Positions 39,044-51,821 of a stretch of 64,000 nt of DNA are shown piece by piece (position 1 is the stretch's first letter; each line of letters begins with the position of its first letter). The notes under the pieces were generated by a model. It made no database searches. It saw only the letters and a list, made by a program, of their open reading frames with translations, and was not told the DNA's origin. Source of the stretch: a virus; the IMG/VR virus record IMGVR_UViG_3300008110_000023, positions 21,027 to 85,026 of that record. The stretch is one strand, 5' to 3'. Position numbers and translations under genes: made by a program.

Positions 39044-39119
39044 CAGTCAGGGCAGGATTTGAACCTGCATATTAGAGCGACCTGTTAAGGCAACTTGTAT
39101 TCCAATCTACCACCTGACT
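39044..39119 (-). tRNA. Degenerate tRNA / tRNA-like element (anticodon not assignable)
   Basis: Acceptor stem AGTCAGG/CCTGACT, T-arm GCAGG-TTCAAAT-CCTGC, D-loop TGG. No canonical anticodon arm and no encoded CCA. Confidence 0.65.
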
Positions 39120-42890: not shown

Positions 42891-42981
42891 TACTCTTACA
42901 AGGTTGCAACCCTTGATTTCCCTATTGGAAGATGAATAATACATCAATCTTCTGGTGTTAATACCTGCTTGGATAAGAGTA
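42891..42981 (-). ncRNA. Candidate tRNA-like cloverleaf RNA
   Basis: 8-bp closing stem TACTCTTA/TAAGAGTA stacked on a 5-bp/7-nt-loop hairpin CAAGG-GTTGCAA-CCTTG. Confidence 0.45.
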
Positions 42982-43192
42982 ATTATTAGCTATATTAAAT
43001 ATAATATAACTATATTTTGAGAAAACCAAATGTTTGGTTAAAGTGTTTGTGAGATGTAGTTAACCACATCAATACACATAAAACATTCAGAGTCTATTTT
43101 TATTAAGCCTCATTAAAAAATATCCCGTATGTCCATACAGAATGTCCACAAAGAGTAGACATAAAGTATAGACACACAGGATAGCCCCATAG

Positions 43193-43582
43193 TTATGGAA
43201 CCAGTGCTTCCGCACTGTTCTTTTCTGCAGGTTCCACAAGTGGCTCTGCAACAGCTTGCTTACGCAAGGTAACCCCAGCTTGCTCCGCAGCAAACTCCAC
43301 GCTTTCTCCGTGCATAATGCACAAAGAAATGGTGTTCACGGTGTTGTCCCCAATCTTGTAATCCTCTGTTTGTACTTTTTGTACACGGATTAATGGGTAC
43401 TCACTCCCTACTTTGTACAGCTTGTACATCATAGGTTTCATTAAGCGGGTAACGCAAACACCTGTATTAGGGTCAGCGAAAGTAACTTGTGAGCTTGTGA
43501 AGACACTCCCATCTTCATTTGTAAACTCAACAGCTTCAGCACTTAGACATATAGTAGCCATAATAAAACAACGGTTATCCAC
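43193..43582 (-). CDS. First gene of the leftward block; GC-rich hypothetical protein
   Basis: ORF track (start may be MATICL at 43561); about 50-55% GC in its 3' part. Confidence 0.65.
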   Translation of the reverse strand: MDNRCFIMATICLSAEAVEFTNEDGSVFTSSQVTFADPNTGVCVTRLMKPMMYKLYKVGSEYPLIRVQKVQTEDYKIGDNTVNTISLCIMHGESVEFAAEQAGVTLRKQAVAEPLVEPAEKNSAEALVP

Positions 43583-43767
43583 ACACCGTCAAGACGTTAG
43601 TTTAAGCTGGCACTGGGGCATCCGCCCCGCCAAAACTTAGTAGGGGTTAACAACTAGGGTGATACCCACACAGCTACATATGCTATGTTTGAAAATATTT
43701 TTTATAAAATTTTTTTTGAAAACACATTTTTAGCTATATGGATATGAAAATAATTTTCACATTTCTC

Positions 43768-43798
43768 TTGCTTTTTAAATTCTTATTATATAGTTTTG
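43768..43798 (+). promoter_or_regulatory. Bacteroidetes-type promoter opening the late block
   Basis: TTG (43768-70), 20-nt spacer, TAGTTTTG (43791-98). Confidence 0.7.
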
Positions 43799-43804
43799 CA
43801 TCCG

Positions 43805-44062
43805 TAGTATTGTTTACCACAATATCAGTTCTGAGGCACAACTTGTATTAGGAACTTAGACATAGGGTTAGTATCTATAAATAATAGAAAGGTTGTCCCC
43901 TGTAACTACAAAACAGACTTCTAAAAGTAAAGTAAACTGGAAGGGAATAATAGTAGGTAAAACTACCCTTGTAGGCTAAAGACGGCAGTTGAAAATTACT
44001 TAGGAGTTAAAATCGCAGTTAAGCAATTAACTGTCAGCAAAATCAAGGGGATAGTTATGTTC
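43805..44062 (+). ncRNA. Candidate ~260-nt structured ncRNA / leader RNA
   Basis: ORF-free, directly after the promoter; at least seven nested helices including two long-range coaxial stems. Confidence 0.6.
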
Positions 44063-44090
44063 AATTATAAACAAAATTACAATTAATGAA

Positions 44091-44339
44091 GTGGAAGAAT
44101 CAATGTTAGAATATATAACTAACTATGTTGAAGAGGAGTTATATAAGAAACCAAAAACTAAGGTATTAAGTATAAACCTAACTCCTTTAGAATATAAAGA
44201 ATTAGTAGAAGAATTAAGTGAGTTTAGTGATATACATAGTGATACTATATTGAATGAAATTAGAGTTAATGGTATTAAGGTAATACTATTGGTCTATAAT
44301 AAGGTAGTAGGGTATGAACCAGATTATCTTGTAGCGTAA
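44091..44339 (+). CDS. Hypothetical protein
   Basis: ORF track. Confidence 0.55.
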   Translation: MEESMLEYITNYVEEELYKKPKTKVLSINLTPLEYKELVEELSEFSDIHSDTILNEIRVNGIKVILLVYNKVVGYEPDYLVA

Positions 44340-44362
44340 TAAACAATTAATAAATTAAATAA

Positions 44363-44986
44363 ATGGCAATGGACAAAGAGCTTCTTAAAGCTTTAACAAC
44401 AACAATGAAAAACAGTGCTAGTACTGGAACACCTAGTATAGCTACTCCAAGTAAAGGAGCTACTACAGCAGTACCTTCTAAGAAAACTATGAATCCACTT
44501 ATTACTGAGGATATGGTAGATTTTCTTAACTACAGAATACAACAAGAAGAGTACTCTAGTAGAGTATACAAAGCAATGGCTATGTACCTAAGTAATAAAG
44601 GATATGTTAATGCTTCTAAATTATGGGATAAATACTCTGATGAAGAAATGGCACATGCAGACTTTGCAAGAACTTATATTCTTTCTTTTGGTATACAACC
44701 AGTAACTCCTAGGTTAGATCAACCACAACAGGATTTTACAGGACTGCCTCAGATTATACAAATGTCTTTTGATCATGAAGTAGAAGTAAGTACTCAATGT
44801 AAGAAGTTAGCTGATGCTGCATTTAAAAAAGCAGATCATATGTTATATGAGTTAGCTCTTAAGTATCTAAAGGAACAAGTAGAAGAGCATGATAAAATGC
44901 AAAACTGGGTAGACCAATTAGAAGCTTTTGGTACTGACAAAATTGCAATGAGGTTATTAGACCATGAAATGAAAGATTATCTATAG
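44363..44986 (+). CDS. Ferritin
   Basis: Ferroxidase ligands QEEYSS..Y, EEMAHA, EVEV, EQVEE; low-complexity N-terminal extension. Confidence 0.88.
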   Translation: MAMDKELLKALTTTMKNSASTGTPSIATPSKGATTAVPSKKTMNPLITEDMVDFLNYRIQQEEYSSRVYKAMAMYLSNKGYVNASKLWDKYSDEEMAHADFARTYILSFGIQPVTPRLDQPQQDFTGLPQIIQMSFDHEVEVSTQCKKLADAAFKKADHMLYELALKYLKEQVEEHDKMQNWVDQLEAFGTDKIAMRLLDHEMKDYL

Positions 44987-47282: not shown

Positions 47283-49295
47283 ATGAGATTTAATAAAGAC
47301 ATACTAGAGTTTACAGCTACACGTCAACACTTTGATGAGTTTGGTGTATACACTAAATTAGCTTTAAACACTACACAATGGAAAGCATTTTGGGCAGAAG
47401 AAAAGCGTAGATGTCTAGAAGGATATCATACAGGTTCTGACTTTATACCAGGATACTTTTACTTCTACCTTAACTATAGTAGAATTAGGTTAACTACACC
47501 AAAAGAAGGTAATCAAAATAGTGCTGCAGTAGATAGGATAGAAGCATTCCCTGAATTCTGGGATGGAGATTATGATTTCTTTCATTATTTAGATGAAGCA
47601 GAGAATAGTGGTAATCATGCTATGATGTTAGCGTCAAGGGGTAAAGGTAAATCATTTAAAGGTGGCAGTATGCTTAATAGAAACTACTTTCTTATACCTA
47701 ACTCTACTAGTTTTGCATTTGCTGCATCAGAACAATACCTTACTGGTGATGGTTTAATTACCAAAGCATGGAATATAATGGATTTTATTGACCAAAATAC
47801 ACCATGGGCTAAGAGAAGACAGTTTAAAAATACTGACTTACACAGAAGAGCTTCAGTACAATCTAATGAAAATGGTATTAAAACAGAGAAAGGTTTTAAA
47901 TCTGAGATAATTGGAGTAACAGTTGGAGATAATATCAACAAACTTAGGGGTAAAAGGGGTAAGTTAATGATACTAGAGGAGATAGGTTCCTTTCCTAAAT
48001 CACATACTGGTTGGAATATACTAAGACCTTCAGTAGAACAAGGTAATAAAACCTTTGGTTTATTACTAGCATTTGGTACAGGTGGTGAAGAAGGCGCTGC
48101 ATTTGATGGAGCAGAGGAGTTATTCAAGAATCCACAAGCATACAAGATACATCCAGTAACTAATAAGTGGGATGAAGGTATGGAAAGTACACAATGTTCT
48201 TACTTTTGGTCTGCAGCACAAAACTTTGCAGGAGCTTATGATAAATGGGGTAATTCTGACATACTTGTAGCTAAGAAACTTATAGAAGAAGACCGTGCTA
48301 ATGTAAAAAAAGGTTCTGACCCACATGCATTAACAAGAAGAATGGCTGAGTTACCTCTAAATCCTAGAGAAGCCATGATGAAAATCACTGGAACTCAATT
48401 TCCTGTAGCAGATATAAGAGCACAAGAAGCAGAAATAGAAAGTAAACCACATTTATACAAGAATGCAGACTATGTAGGTAGATTTGAGCTTAACCAAACT
48501 ACACAAAGGTTTGAATTTATATATGATAGTACCTTAACACCAATATATAAGTCAGGATTTGTAGATAATAAGAATAAACCTGGTGCAATTGTACTATATG
48601 AACTAGCAAAAACAGATGATCAAAAAGAAGTACCTACTAATAGGTATGTTGCAGGCATTGACTCCTATGACTTTGATGAAAGTACTACTAATTCCTTAGG
48701 AAGTTGCTTTGTATTTGATAGTTGGACTAAGCAATGTGTAGCAGAATACACTGGTAGACCAACAGCATTTGATTTCTATGAGAATTGTAGAAGATTATTA
48801 CTATATTACAATGCCAAAGTAAATATAGAGAATGCAAATAAGGGTATATTTGACTACTTTGACAACAAAAATTGTGGTTATTTAATCTGTGAAGAACCTA
48901 GAATAGCAAGAGAAGCTTTAGCAGAAACAGTAAAAGGCGGATCTAGAAGAAGAGGTACTACACCAAGTACTAGATTAAATGCTTATGCTAGAGGATTAAT
49001 AGCAAGATGGTTATTAGAACCTACTAATAATCCAGATAAACCAGAAGAAATGCAAGTACATAAGTTTAGATGTTTACCTGCATTACAAGAGTTGGCAGTA
49101 TGGAATATAGATGGTAACTTTGATAGGGTTTCTGCACTTGGTATGGCTATGTTGTTAATGCAAGATAGAGAAAAGTACAATGTAGAAACAATGTCAGTAA
49201 AAGAAAAGCCAGATCCATTTTGGGATAGGCATTTTAAAAAGAAAAGCTATAGTGGGTACAGAAATTTTTTAACTGACGGTGTACAATTTAAATAA
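47283..49295 (+). CDS. terL: Terminase large subunit
   Basis: SRGKGKS Walker A, LRGKRG, LEEIG Walker B, FGTGG; nuclease motifs AGIDSYD, IEN, NFDRVSA. Confidence 0.92.
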   Translation: MRFNKDILEFTATRQHFDEFGVYTKLALNTTQWKAFWAEEKRRCLEGYHTGSDFIPGYFYFYLNYSRIRLTTPKEGNQNSAAVDRIEAFPEFWDGDYDFFHYLDEAENSGNHAMMLASRGKGKSFKGGSMLNRNYFLIPNSTSFAFAASEQYLTGDGLITKAWNIMDFIDQNTPWAKRRQFKNTDLHRRASVQSNENGIKTEKGFKSEIIGVTVGDNINKLRGKRGKLMILEEIGSFPKSHTGWNILRPSVEQGNKTFGLLLAFGTGGEEGAAFDGAEELFKNPQAYKIHPVTNKWDEGMESTQCSYFWSAAQNFAGAYDKWGNSDILVAKKLIEEDRANVKKGSDPHALTRRMAELPLNPREAMMKITGTQFPVADIRAQEAEIESKPHLYKNADYVGRFELNQTTQRFEFIYDSTLTPIYKSGFVDNKNKPGAIVLYELAKTDDQKEVPTNRYVAGIDSYDFDESTTNSLGSCFVFDSWTKQCVAEYTGRPTAFDFYENCRRLLLYYNAKVNIENANKGIFDYFDNKNCGYLICEEPRIAREALAETVKGGSRRRGTTPSTRLNAYARGLIARWLLEPTNNPDKPEEMQVHKFRCLPALQELAVWNIDGNFDRVSALGMAMLLMQDREKYNVETMSVKEKPDPFWDRHFKKKSYSGYRNFLTDGVQFK

Positions 49296-49334: not shown

Positions 49335-51821
49335 ATGTTTTTTAATACAACTAACGTACCAAGATATTTTCCCAGTCAAAAGAAGTCCACTAAAGAAAAA
49401 ACTGAAGAGTGGTGCAAACAATGCGTATTGGCTGGTGAGCAAATTCTGTTATATAGTGATCCTACTATTAGACAGACTAGATTAAATAAGAAAACTAATT
49501 ATAACTTATACAATGATATCTTAGATGTAGGTGATTTAGAAACTGTATTAAATCCTATGGGATTAGATAGAAATAGTTTCCCTGCTACTTTGAGAAATTA
49601 TCCTATAGCCAATCCTAAAATAAATAGGTTATCAGGAGAAGAGTTAACAAGACCATTTGACTTTAGAGTTATGGTACTTAATGAGGATGCTATCTCACAA
49701 AAAGAGCAAGAAAAGAAAGAAATTATAATGCAATCTTTGCAAAATATCTTATTAGCAGATATGCCAGAGTTGCAAGATCCAAAACAACAAGAAGCTTATA
49801 TACAAGAGAAATTAAAAGAAACTGAAAAGTATCTTAATTTTGAATGGCAAGAAAAAAGAGAACTAGGTGGTACATGGATATTACAACATTACTACTTAGA
49901 ATTAGACCTTAAGACAGCTTTCAATAGAGGTTTCCATGATGCATTAATTGCAGGAGAAGAAATCTATTGTATAGATGAAGTAAGTGGTGAACCCGTTGTC
50001 AGGAGATGTAATCCTTTAAATACATACGCACTAATGGAACCAGATACATTGTACTGGGATGAGGCAGATATGATATTAGAGGAAGGTTATAGAAGTATAG
50101 GTTATGTAATTGACTTATACCATGACTATCTTACTCCTGACAATATAGAATTTTTAGAGAAAGGTTATAAGTACCAATATTCACAGTATGGTACTCCTAA
50201 GTTTTCCACAGATGAATATCTACAAGCAATTGGTGAAACAAGAAACTTAATAGATATTGCAGATACAAGACCAGGTTTTGGAGGTATGTTTGATACAGAT
50301 GGTAACGTAAGAGTTATTAGACTTGTATGGAAATCCAGACGTAAAATAGGAAAGTTAAAGTACTATGATGAACAAGGAGAACCACAAGAAACTTGGGTAG
50401 ATGAATTATACAAAGCTGATAAATCATTAGGTGAAGAAATAGAATGGCTTTGGATAAATGAATATTGGGAAGGTACTAAGATAGCAAATGATATATTTGT
50501 TAAAATGCAACCTAGACCTATTCAGTTTAGAAGAATGTCTAATCCATCTAGATGTAAATCAGGTTATGTAGGAACACAATACATGACAGGTGTTGGTAAA
50601 GCAATGTCTTTAATGGATAGAATTAAACCTTATCAGTATTTGTATAATATATACATGTACAGACTAGAGTTATTATTTGCTAAAAATAAAGGTGTTATTG
50701 GTGAATTAGATTTAGCTAAAGTACCTGATGGTTGGGAAATAGATAAATGGATGCACTATGCTGAAGTACATGGTTGGGCTATTGTAGATTCTTTTAAAGA
50801 AGCTAAGAAAGGTGCCGCTACTGGTAAACTGGCAGGTAACTTTAATACTACAGGAAGAGTACTTAATATGGAAGTAGGACAATCAATCCAACAACATATT
50901 AATATGCTTGACTTTATTAAGAATGAGATAGGAGAGATTACAGGTATATCTAGACAAAGAGAAGGAGATATTGCTCAATCTGCAGGTTTAGGTACTACAC
51001 AACAAGCTATAATGAACTCTGCTCAGATTACAGAACCTTGGTTTTATTTACATGAAAGAACTAAGTTACGTGTAATGGATACTTTACTTGATACAGCTAA
51101 ATATTGTATTAGTACAGGTAAAGCTAAGAAGATGCAACATATTTTAGATGATATGACTATTGTAACTTACCAGTTAGATCCAGAACAGTTTTGTGAAGCA
51201 GAGTATGGTATAATGACAACTAACTCAGCTAATGATAGACAACTATATGAAGCACTTAAACAGTTAGCACATGCAGGTATACAAAATGATAAGATTAACT
51301 TTAGTCAGTTAATGGATATCTATACTACTACTAGCTTAAGTTCTATAAGACGTAAGATAGAAAAAGCAGAACAAGATAAACAAAAACTTGCTCAGCAAAA
51401 TGCAGAAGCAGATAGACAAACTCAATTAGAAGCACAAAAAATGCAGTCTGCAGAGAATGAAGCTGAGAGAGAAATGACTAGATATAAAATAGATTCTGAT
51501 AATGAGACAAGAATAAGAGTTGCTGAAATGCAAGTTTATTCACGTCAACAAGAATTAGATCAAAATAACAATGGTATTCCTGATCCTATGGAAATTGCAG
51601 GACAAGCAATGGAAGAAAGAAAATATGCTTCCAATGAGTTGTCTAATAACCTAGATAGAATACTTAAAGATAAAGAAATACAGAATAAATCTAATTTAGA
51701 AAAAGAAAAGTTAGCAACACAAAAAGAAATAGCTAAGATGAAAGCAGATGCTGAAAAATATAAAGCAGATAATGCACTTAAAATAGCTAAAGAGAATAAG
51801 AATAAATTTGACAAAAAGTAA
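49335..51821 (+). CDS. Portal protein
   Basis: Follows TerL; crAss-type portal features (YPIANPKIN.L.GEE, W.WINEYWEGTKI, GISRQREG, coiled-coil C-terminus). Confidence 0.85.
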   Translation: MFFNTTNVPRYFPSQKKSTKEKTEEWCKQCVLAGEQILLYSDPTIRQTRLNKKTNYNLYNDILDVGDLETVLNPMGLDRNSFPATLRNYPIANPKINRLSGEELTRPFDFRVMVLNEDAISQKEQEKKEIIMQSLQNILLADMPELQDPKQQEAYIQEKLKETEKYLNFEWQEKRELGGTWILQHYYLELDLKTAFNRGFHDALIAGEEIYCIDEVSGEPVVRRCNPLNTYALMEPDTLYWDEADMILEEGYRSIGYVIDLYHDYLTPDNIEFLEKGYKYQYSQYGTPKFSTDEYLQAIGETRNLIDIADTRPGFGGMFDTDGNVRVIRLVWKSRRKIGKLKYYDEQGEPQETWVDELYKADKSLGEEIEWLWINEYWEGTKIANDIFVKMQPRPIQFRRMSNPSRCKSGYVGTQYMTGVGKAMSLMDRIKPYQYLYNIYMYRLELLFAKNKGVIGELDLAKVPDGWEIDKWMHYAEVHGWAIVDSFKEAKKGAATGKLAGNFNTTGRVLNMEVGQSIQQHINMLDFIKNEIGEITGISRQREGDIAQSAGLGTTQQAIMNSAQITEPWFYLHERTKLRVMDTLLDTAKYCISTGKAKKMQHILDDMTIVTYQLDPEQFCEAEYGIMTTNSANDRQLYEALKQLAHAGIQNDKINFSQLMDIYTTTSLSSIRRKIEKAEQDKQKLAQQNAEADRQTQLEAQKMQSAENEAEREMTRYKIDSDNETRIRVAEMQVYSRQQELDQNNNGIPDPMEIAGQAMEERKYASNELSNNLDRILKDKEIQNKSNLEKEKLATQKEIAKMKADAEKYKADNALKIAKENKNKFDKK

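Follow-up and report, generated by a model that had tools for sequence, protein, structure and literature searches.

Positions 43805-44062 of a 64,000-nt stretch of viral DNA (the window) almost certainly encode a selected RNA structure on the plus strand, and sequence comparison indicates that this RNA is a member of a family of crAss-like phages that is absent from Rfam 15. A sequence-only reading of the window had proposed a novel structured phage ncRNA heading the late operon, and the core of that proposal is upheld by strong covariation and by the lack of an Rfam match. The same element was found in about 38 IMG/VR crAss-like contigs, some of which carry a TerL only 29-38% identical to that of the window.

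The source record is an 85,026 bp virus with direct terminal repeats at the record ends, and the window comprises its bases 21027-85026. Minus-strand genes extend from 16060 to about 43560, and plus-strand genes run from 44103 to the record end and then onward from the record start. The RNA sits in the 540-nt gap where these two arms diverge (43561-44102). This gap contains no open frame: TAA, TAG and TGA stops are all found in each of the 6/6 frames, which also rules out a recoded or hidden ORF. The best GenBank matches of the TerL protein are Crassvirales (35-40% identity), and terL (47283) lies 3.2 kb downstream of the RNA. Near-identical DNA in public runs comes mostly from lake-water and freshwater metagenomes, and none of the runs listed is an RNA run; the strain variants used below were taken from the contigs of three runs, two freshwater and one sediment.

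The flanks of the gap have features of their own. On the leftward side, the minus strand of 42960-43400 forms the most stable fold of the entire window (-149.5 kcal/mol, z = -7.55). Right past the stop codon that closes the first leftward ORF (43560-43193), a long near-perfect hairpin with a U-run at about 43186-43115 (minus strand) probably acts as a strong intrinsic terminator; more hairpins lie close by. In the sediment-run contig, 376 bases (43183-43558), covering most of the first leftward gene, which is GC-rich, are swapped for 373 unrelated letters between flanks that are 95-96% identical, and this segment looks like an exchanged or hypervariable cassette. On the rightward side, the 207-aa gene (44363-44986) has homologues 59-69% identical in crAss-like contigs with a TerL of no more than 24-32% identity, and in several contigs (e.g. 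L007-L011) this homologue stands directly after a portal-sized gene, not before terL; these findings indicate mosaic gene exchange. Among the TerL relatives, P0009, P0011, P0066 and P0093 reach 1025-1073 aa and contain an intein/homing-endonuclease domain (PF14528).

The RNA had been placed directly after a consensus promoter, and a promoter-like site of the form TTG-N20-TAGTTTTG indeed ends at 43798. From the sequence we infer a transcription start at about 43804-43807 and, likewise, the start and end of the RNA and its expression. The bare TAnnTTTG is not enriched in the window (118 found vs 107 expected). The fuller promoter motif is rare, and its other sites lie 16-25 nt ahead of gene starts (45108, 51910); at the RNA promoter, 304 nt separate the motif from the first ATG. 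Across the family, an exact TAnnTTTG at a constant upstream distance was identified in 14/25 homologues and a one-mismatch form in 8 more, compared with 8/84 control chunks, and most homologues also have a TTG about 20 nt upstream of it. Furthermore, AGCTATA-N51/52-TAnnTTTG occurs at three plus-strand sites (43732, 49245 and 51827) against 0.27 expected, and 0/100 shuffles reach three. The AGCTATA box is a candidate activator site that may mark a late promoter class. Because it is shared with the portal and 389-aa gene promoters, the RNA would be expressed late.

Table 1. Features in and around the RNA element (window coordinates).
Feature	Position	Strand	Remarks
AGCTATA upstream box	43732-43738	+	Common to the RNA, portal and 389-aa gene promoters
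Bacteroidota-type promoter (putative)	43768-43798	+	-33 TTG (43768-70), 20-nt spacer, -7 TAGTTTTG (43791-98)
Whole RNA element	43805-44062	+	Runs from the predicted start through the conserved 3' block; no ORF
P1 hairpin	43807-13/43819-25	+	In the MFE fold; weak statistic
P2 hairpin	43827-32/43851-56	+	6/6 pairs changed on both sides; 91% of cells pair
P3 helix	43862-67/43898-903 + 43869-71/43893-95	+	99.1% of cells pair
P4 hairpin	43874-78/43884-88	+	A-rich loop UAAAUAA; 5/5 pairs changed on both sides; 99.1% of cells pair
P6 5' strand CUUCUAA	43918-43924	+	Partner 44000-44006
Conserved single-stranded/junction block AGGCUAAAGACGG	43973-43985	+	Common to many members (MAFFT alignments)
P6 3' strand UUAGGAG	44000-44006	+	Followed by conserved UUAAAAUCG
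P7 hairpin	44015-22/44027-34	+	Capped by a GCAA (GNRA) tetraloop
Conserved 3' block AAGGGGA...UUAUGUUC	44045-44062	+	
First ORF after the RNA	44103-44339	+	78 aa from ATG 44103; listed from GTG 44091
TerL gene	47283-49295	+	Matches crAss-type PHROG
Portal gene	49335-51821	+	Matches crAss-type PHROG

Folding energy does not distinguish the RNA. Its MFE of -55.0 kcal/mol corresponds to z = -1.20, with 23/200 shuffles as stable, and about 25% of 258-nt windows genome-wide fold as well when GC is allowed for (25th percentile); the minus strand is no better than its shuffles (z = +0.09). The description of the RNA as highly structured would thus fail on the window sequence alone, because this energy is ordinary, and it is the comparative evidence that is decisive. 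In the 5' domain, RNAalifold predicts 20 pairs, 12 of them with compensatory changes. In an alignment of 26 distinct sequences, 96.6% of the cells pair vs 74.8% after shuffling, and pairing drops to 39-51% when the partners are slid by 1-3 columns. Double-change cells in the same alignment number 108 vs 28.9 +/- 4.7 in shuffles, a large margin in an alignment whose fitting to a covariance model brings some bias toward structure. Covariation among homologues, proposed as a check in the sequence-only reading, is strong. Forcing the covariation-supported helices costs 5.4 kcal/mol over the MFE (-49.6 vs -55.0). The comparison also assigns the strand: the RNA is read from the plus strand because the frequent G-U and U-G pairs (e.g. 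columns 64/162, 71/154 and 73/152) become C-A mismatches on the other one. The fit of G-U pairs to the plus strand, noted earlier in the window, thus extends across the homologues and holds for that strand only.

The covarying core consists of P2, P3, P4, the long-range P6 and P7. Hairpins P2, P4 and P7, all described from the window sequence beforehand, covary across 19-26 homologues. The first hairpin, P1, fared less clearly: a hairpin of unrelated sequence stands at the same place in most members, but its statistic is weak (5.8 vs 5.15 bp). P3 surrounds P4, and the motifs GGGUUAGUA and GGUUGUCCCC that it carries are near-invariant; the P3 pair 43864/43901 is UA in 13 sequences, CG in 11 and AU in 2, and is broken in none. 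Positions 43871 and 43891 (A7 columns 73/150) covary like-with-like (G/G 19, A/A 4, U/U 1), which suggests a non-Watson-Crick contact or a common third partner. The long-range P6 joins the segment after the A-run to the strand just 5' of the conserved UUAAAAUCG. Its cognate duplexes score 5.54 vs 4.74 for non-cognate ones, with 0/2000 permutations as high, and the family offers examples such as CUGCCUU/GAGGUAG, CCUUAG/CUAAGG, UGACC/GGUCA, CUGUCA/UGACAG and CCUAGA/UCUAGG. Strain variants in P6 stay paired (44002 A>G, turning A-U into G-U, and 44004 G>A, turning G-U into A-U), the variant 43941 A>G preserves a predicted inner pair, and the remaining variants fall in unpaired stretches. Between the P6 strands, the block AGGCUAAAGACGG belongs to the variable middle domain (43925-43999).

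The 3' domain, with the P6 strand and UUAAAAUCG, the GNRA-capped P7 and the AAGGGGA...UAUGUY tail, lies entirely at 44000-44062 and aligns with 18 other members. In P7, 80% of the cells pair vs 49.9% after shuffling, double changes number 55 vs 21.9, and the loops across the family are mostly GUAA, GCAA or GUGA. In 28/28 members, AGGG(G) precedes UAUGUC or UAUAUC, and a search for a covarying partner of the 3' block 44045-44062 found none.

Every stem proposed from the window sequence can form, and all are in the MFE fold (RNAfold), but only part of them are conserved. Neither long-range stem shows a cognate excess: GACATAG/TTATGTT (43859-65/44055-61) reaches 4.42 vs 4.52, and TTGTCCCCT/AGGGGATAG (43893-901/44046-54) reaches 3.88 vs 3.95. 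Both of these long closing stems, which had been pictured as coaxially stacked, are peculiar to the window sequence and would unwind the covarying P3. P5, formed by CTACAA/TTGTAG (43906-11/43969-74), was equalled in 768/2000 permutations, and pairing of the post-P3 segment with the 3' tail into a closing helix has marginal support (244/5000). The CCCC/GGGG (AGGGG/CCCC) extension shows neither cognate excess nor covariation. For the 3' domain, the hairpin GCAGTTAA/GCAA/TTAACTGT and a competing GGCAGTTGA segment are present in the sequence as had been described; the alternative fold of P7 that they were taken to suggest has a weak signal (30/2000 permutations), and few sequences drive it.

The family was delineated by several routes. 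G002 and G005 are distant crAss-like phages fetched for their shared 207-aa gene (TerL 32% and 29% identical, respectively), and their terL-upstream regions match the gap in nhmmer and blastn searches; for the phage with the 32%-identical TerL, nhmmer gives E 7e-10, with 74% of 113 nt identical. A search pattern that joins two invariant blocks, GGGTTARTA-N16-21-GTTGTCCCC, identified 35 IMG/VR loci, 30 of which are clear homologues. R1, a covariance model of the 5' domain built from alignment A5, finds the element in the independently fetched terL loci L016, L019/L034, L023, L038, L066, L069 and L084, a sampling that is free of bias from the sequence pattern. The window itself scores 82.6 bits against the full R1 model (E 5e-19) and 82.4 bits against R2. 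It has the 5' domain of the family, namely P2, AGAMRU-N-GGGUUAGUA, P4 and GAGGUUGUCCCC-N'-RUA (P3), and also the family's context, with an upstream TAnnTTTG promoter and a single copy on the terL strand, 2-8.5 kb upstream of terL. This strand and distance hold in 15/15 genomes in which both the element and terL are seen. One copy per genome was counted in 6/6 near-complete genomes (95-100% complete or with terminal repeats). The window's genome has one copy.

The closest TerL relatives (60-64% identical) hold the most diverged copies of the RNA, at 29 and 22.8 bits, and G002, with its 32%-identical TerL, holds one that scores 87 bits. Because copy similarity runs against TerL similarity, the RNA module appears to have moved between lineages. 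R1 and R2 gave no hit in phi14:2, crAss001, crAss002, DAC15, cr130_1, cr4_1, cr55_1, cr124_1 or the Azobacteroides phage, and only weak hits in the wrong place in cr50_1. These ten reference Crassvirales, four of them cultured (phi14:2, crAss001, crAss002 and DAC15), are thus without a convincing element. A blastn search of GenBank phages returned nothing for the window region or for member L098. Close relatives of the window were found neither in IMG/VR scans (with an 82-aa ORF, TerL peptides and an exact 21-mer) nor in genome-contig scans; the metagenome scan gave one contig, which begins at the ORF and lacks upstream DNA, and Logan contigs carry the 90%-identical ORFs P0002 and P0003.

What follows the RNA varies from member to member. 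In the window, no terminator lies between the RNA and the 78-aa ORF, whose homologues begin at Met 44103, and this gene is not conserved beside the RNA in other members. In one marine metagenome contig (L013, 1642 nt), the match to the 78-aa ORF breaks off after its first 40 residues (98% identity); this contig may be chimeric or a recombinant. No conserved gene was identified downstream of the RNA across the members; the largest cluster has 7 members at varying positions. A strong intrinsic terminator occurs 45-100 nt past the RNA in 5/28 listed members (L099, L097/L113/L127 and L038), across a spacer that is not conserved, and in L097 a fresh TAnnTTTG promoter was seen by eye after the terminator. 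In the other 23/28 listed members, including the window, the RNA is followed not by a terminator but by an ORF, at a distance of about 5-500 nt.

Comparison with described RNAs returned no relative. At the gathering threshold, the 4227 models of Rfam 15, which include tRNA, tmRNA, 6S, RNase P, group I/II introns, riboswitches, GOLLD, ROOL and HEARO, matched the window only at a tRNA at 39044-39119 (minus strand, 41.7 bits), which is absent from the ARAGORN output. In E-value mode, the best hits within 43300-44400 had E 4-8, far under threshold, and the loci of 12 other members gave only tRNAs. The cmscan that the earlier reading had suggested thus agrees with its impression that the RNA is no tRNA, tmRNA or group I/II intron, and no known family matches it. 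Full-text literature searches returned no description of the RNA, and overlap with 10,006 unnamed IMG/VR-based candidates (PMC10690425, 2023) is possible. Like the phi29 pRNA, which is required together with the packaging machinery, it is a structured RNA encoded by a phage, and it lies a few kb upstream of terL and portal; it differs in that there is no Rfam match, crAss-like phages have a classical TerL, and nothing observed ties the RNA to capsids.

For its function, we tentatively favor a cis-acting leader that would modify host RNA polymerase for processive transcription of the late arm, by analogy with known antiterminators. HK022 putL/putR (about 70 nt, two stem-loops) and the B. subtilis EAR (about 120 nt) are processive antiterminators that act in cis and are made of RNA alone or carried by a leader. 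Like them, the RNA of crAss-like phages is structured and is predicted to open a long transcript from a host-RNAP promoter; which gene comes next is irrelevant, and downstream terminators are tolerated. A host promoter of the Bacteroidota sigma-A type would drive the RNA, with an AGCTATA box shared with the portal and one structural-gene promoter, so that the RNA would be made as the first ~260 nt of the long transcript of the rightward structural and packaging arm. Its fold runs in the order P1, P2, the P3/P4 domain, the variable middle bridged by P6, the GNRA-capped P7 and the AAGGGGA...UAUGUY tail. The folded RNA could then bind the host RNA polymerase during transcription, or else an elongation factor of the host, and make transcription over tens of kb of the late arm processive, in the manner of put or EAR. 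This reading is favored because the RNA is conserved beyond the phage proteins, always begins at the predicted +1 of a host-type promoter, is present once per genome where the terL arm begins and is indifferent to the next gene. So invariant an RNA is unlikely to have a fast-evolving phage protein as its partner and would more plausibly act on a host machine or by itself. In phi14:2, a crAss-like phage of Cellulophaga, transcription of middle and late genes reportedly relies on host RNAP (bioRxiv 10.1101/2020.03.07.982082).

Several observations stand against the leader. The RNA spans 260-330 nt and has seven or more helices, invariant junctions and a GNRA loop; it greatly exceeds put and EAR in complexity and has no sequence or structure similarity to them. 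Its conserved fold (P1-P4, P6 and P7 over ~260 nt) is not their architecture, and the host belongs to the Bacteroidota, not to Enterobacteria or Bacillus; only position and promoter type are consistent with the analogy. Because the RNA is so much more complex than put and EAR, an RNP or a ribozyme fits better in this respect. With the new promoter past its terminator, the RNA unit of L097 looks like a promoter-to-terminator gene of its own, and the ten reference Crassvirales have similar long arms yet do without the RNA.

Nearly as likely as the cis-acting leader is a free-standing ncRNA that works in trans: the scaffold of an RNP, a decoy or sponge that occupies a conserved host factor, or an ornate RNA comparable to GOLLD and ROOL. 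A terminator or processing would free it from the leader, and its position would merely give it late, strong expression. The complex fold with invariant junction nucleotides and a GNRA tetraloop is consistent with this, as are the promoter-RNA-terminator units of L099, L097/L113/L127 and L038, the single copy per genome with no conserved downstream gene, and the apparent horizontal exchange of the module among distant phages. Against it, the 23 listed members without a terminator, the window among them, have an ORF close behind the RNA, and no gene for a partner protein is linked to the RNA across the members. GOLLD (RF01998) and ROOL (RF03087) are likewise phage-borne, with a complex fold, strong covariation and no assigned function, and often lie near tRNA genes; tRNA gene arrays are found downstream of the RNA on the same strand in two members (L098:1567-4117 and L114:5373-5597). 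They differ in giving no cmscan match to the RNA, which is two to three times smaller and always lies close to the promoter where the terL arm begins. Phage phi14:2 also makes abundant long intergenic ncRNAs, at the g004-g006 junctions and with no assigned function (bioRxiv 10.1101/2020.03.07.982082). These are, like the RNA predicted here, non-coding transcripts of a crAss-like phage from long gene-free stretches, but they come from the early/replication region and appear with early transcripts, and R1 and R2 find no homologue anywhere in that genome.

A riboswitch-like sensor or attenuator is improbable. Here a small molecule or host factor would act through alternative pairings that gate transcription or translation of the arm, with either the GGG or the 3' AGGGG opposing the CCCC strand and 43984-92 opposing the 5' arm of P7. 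Two conserved G-runs could indeed compete for one conserved C-run, a weak family-wide signal exists for alternative pairing of the P7 3' arm (the 30/2000 above), and some members have terminators downstream. However, the AGGGG/CCCC extension lacks covariation, the alternative-fold signal is due to few sequences, and the terminators, present in few members, are set 45-100 nt apart from the RNA across the non-conserved spacer. Moreover, the downstream genes are neither conserved nor functionally related, whereas a riboswitch would be expected to precede genes of consistent function.

We consider it quite unlikely that the RNA is a self-cleaving or self-processing ribozyme trimming the late transcript at its 5' end. 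Catalytic RNAs typically are of this size and have invariant junction nucleotides and long-range helices, but no ribozyme family of Rfam 15 matched and no conserved cleavage-site signature was recognized. It is very unlikely that the element acts as DNA, be it a replication origin, operator array or packaging site, or that its stems arose by chance in an ordinary 5' UTR: the strand-switch position beside an AT-rich palindrome and the MFE z of only -1.2 would suit them, but the compensatory changes pass through G-U intermediates workable on one strand only, the minus strand does not outdo its shuffles, several relatives carry the element away from any strand switch, and the genome ends lie elsewhere, at the direct terminal repeats.

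The compensatory-mutation map supplies ready-made mutants for experiments, and the models and alignments (R1, R2 and A5-A8) enable annotation of the RNA in viromes. Few phages of gut and aquatic Bacteroidota are as abundant as the crAss-like phages, and in many uncultured ones, with TerL proteins only ~30% identical, the RNA is kept once per genome. It offers a concrete candidate for control of the 50-60 kb structural arm via the host polymerase, or a new ornate phage RNA. It is possible, though we would not expect it, that the family represents a class of RNA-only regulators that dock on a conserved surface of the Bacteroidota transcription machinery, or on another host machine, and control late expression; a new ribozyme or RNP core would be an equally novel alternative. 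If true, docking on a host machine would explain both why the RNA is conserved above any phage protein and why it is swapped between distant phages.
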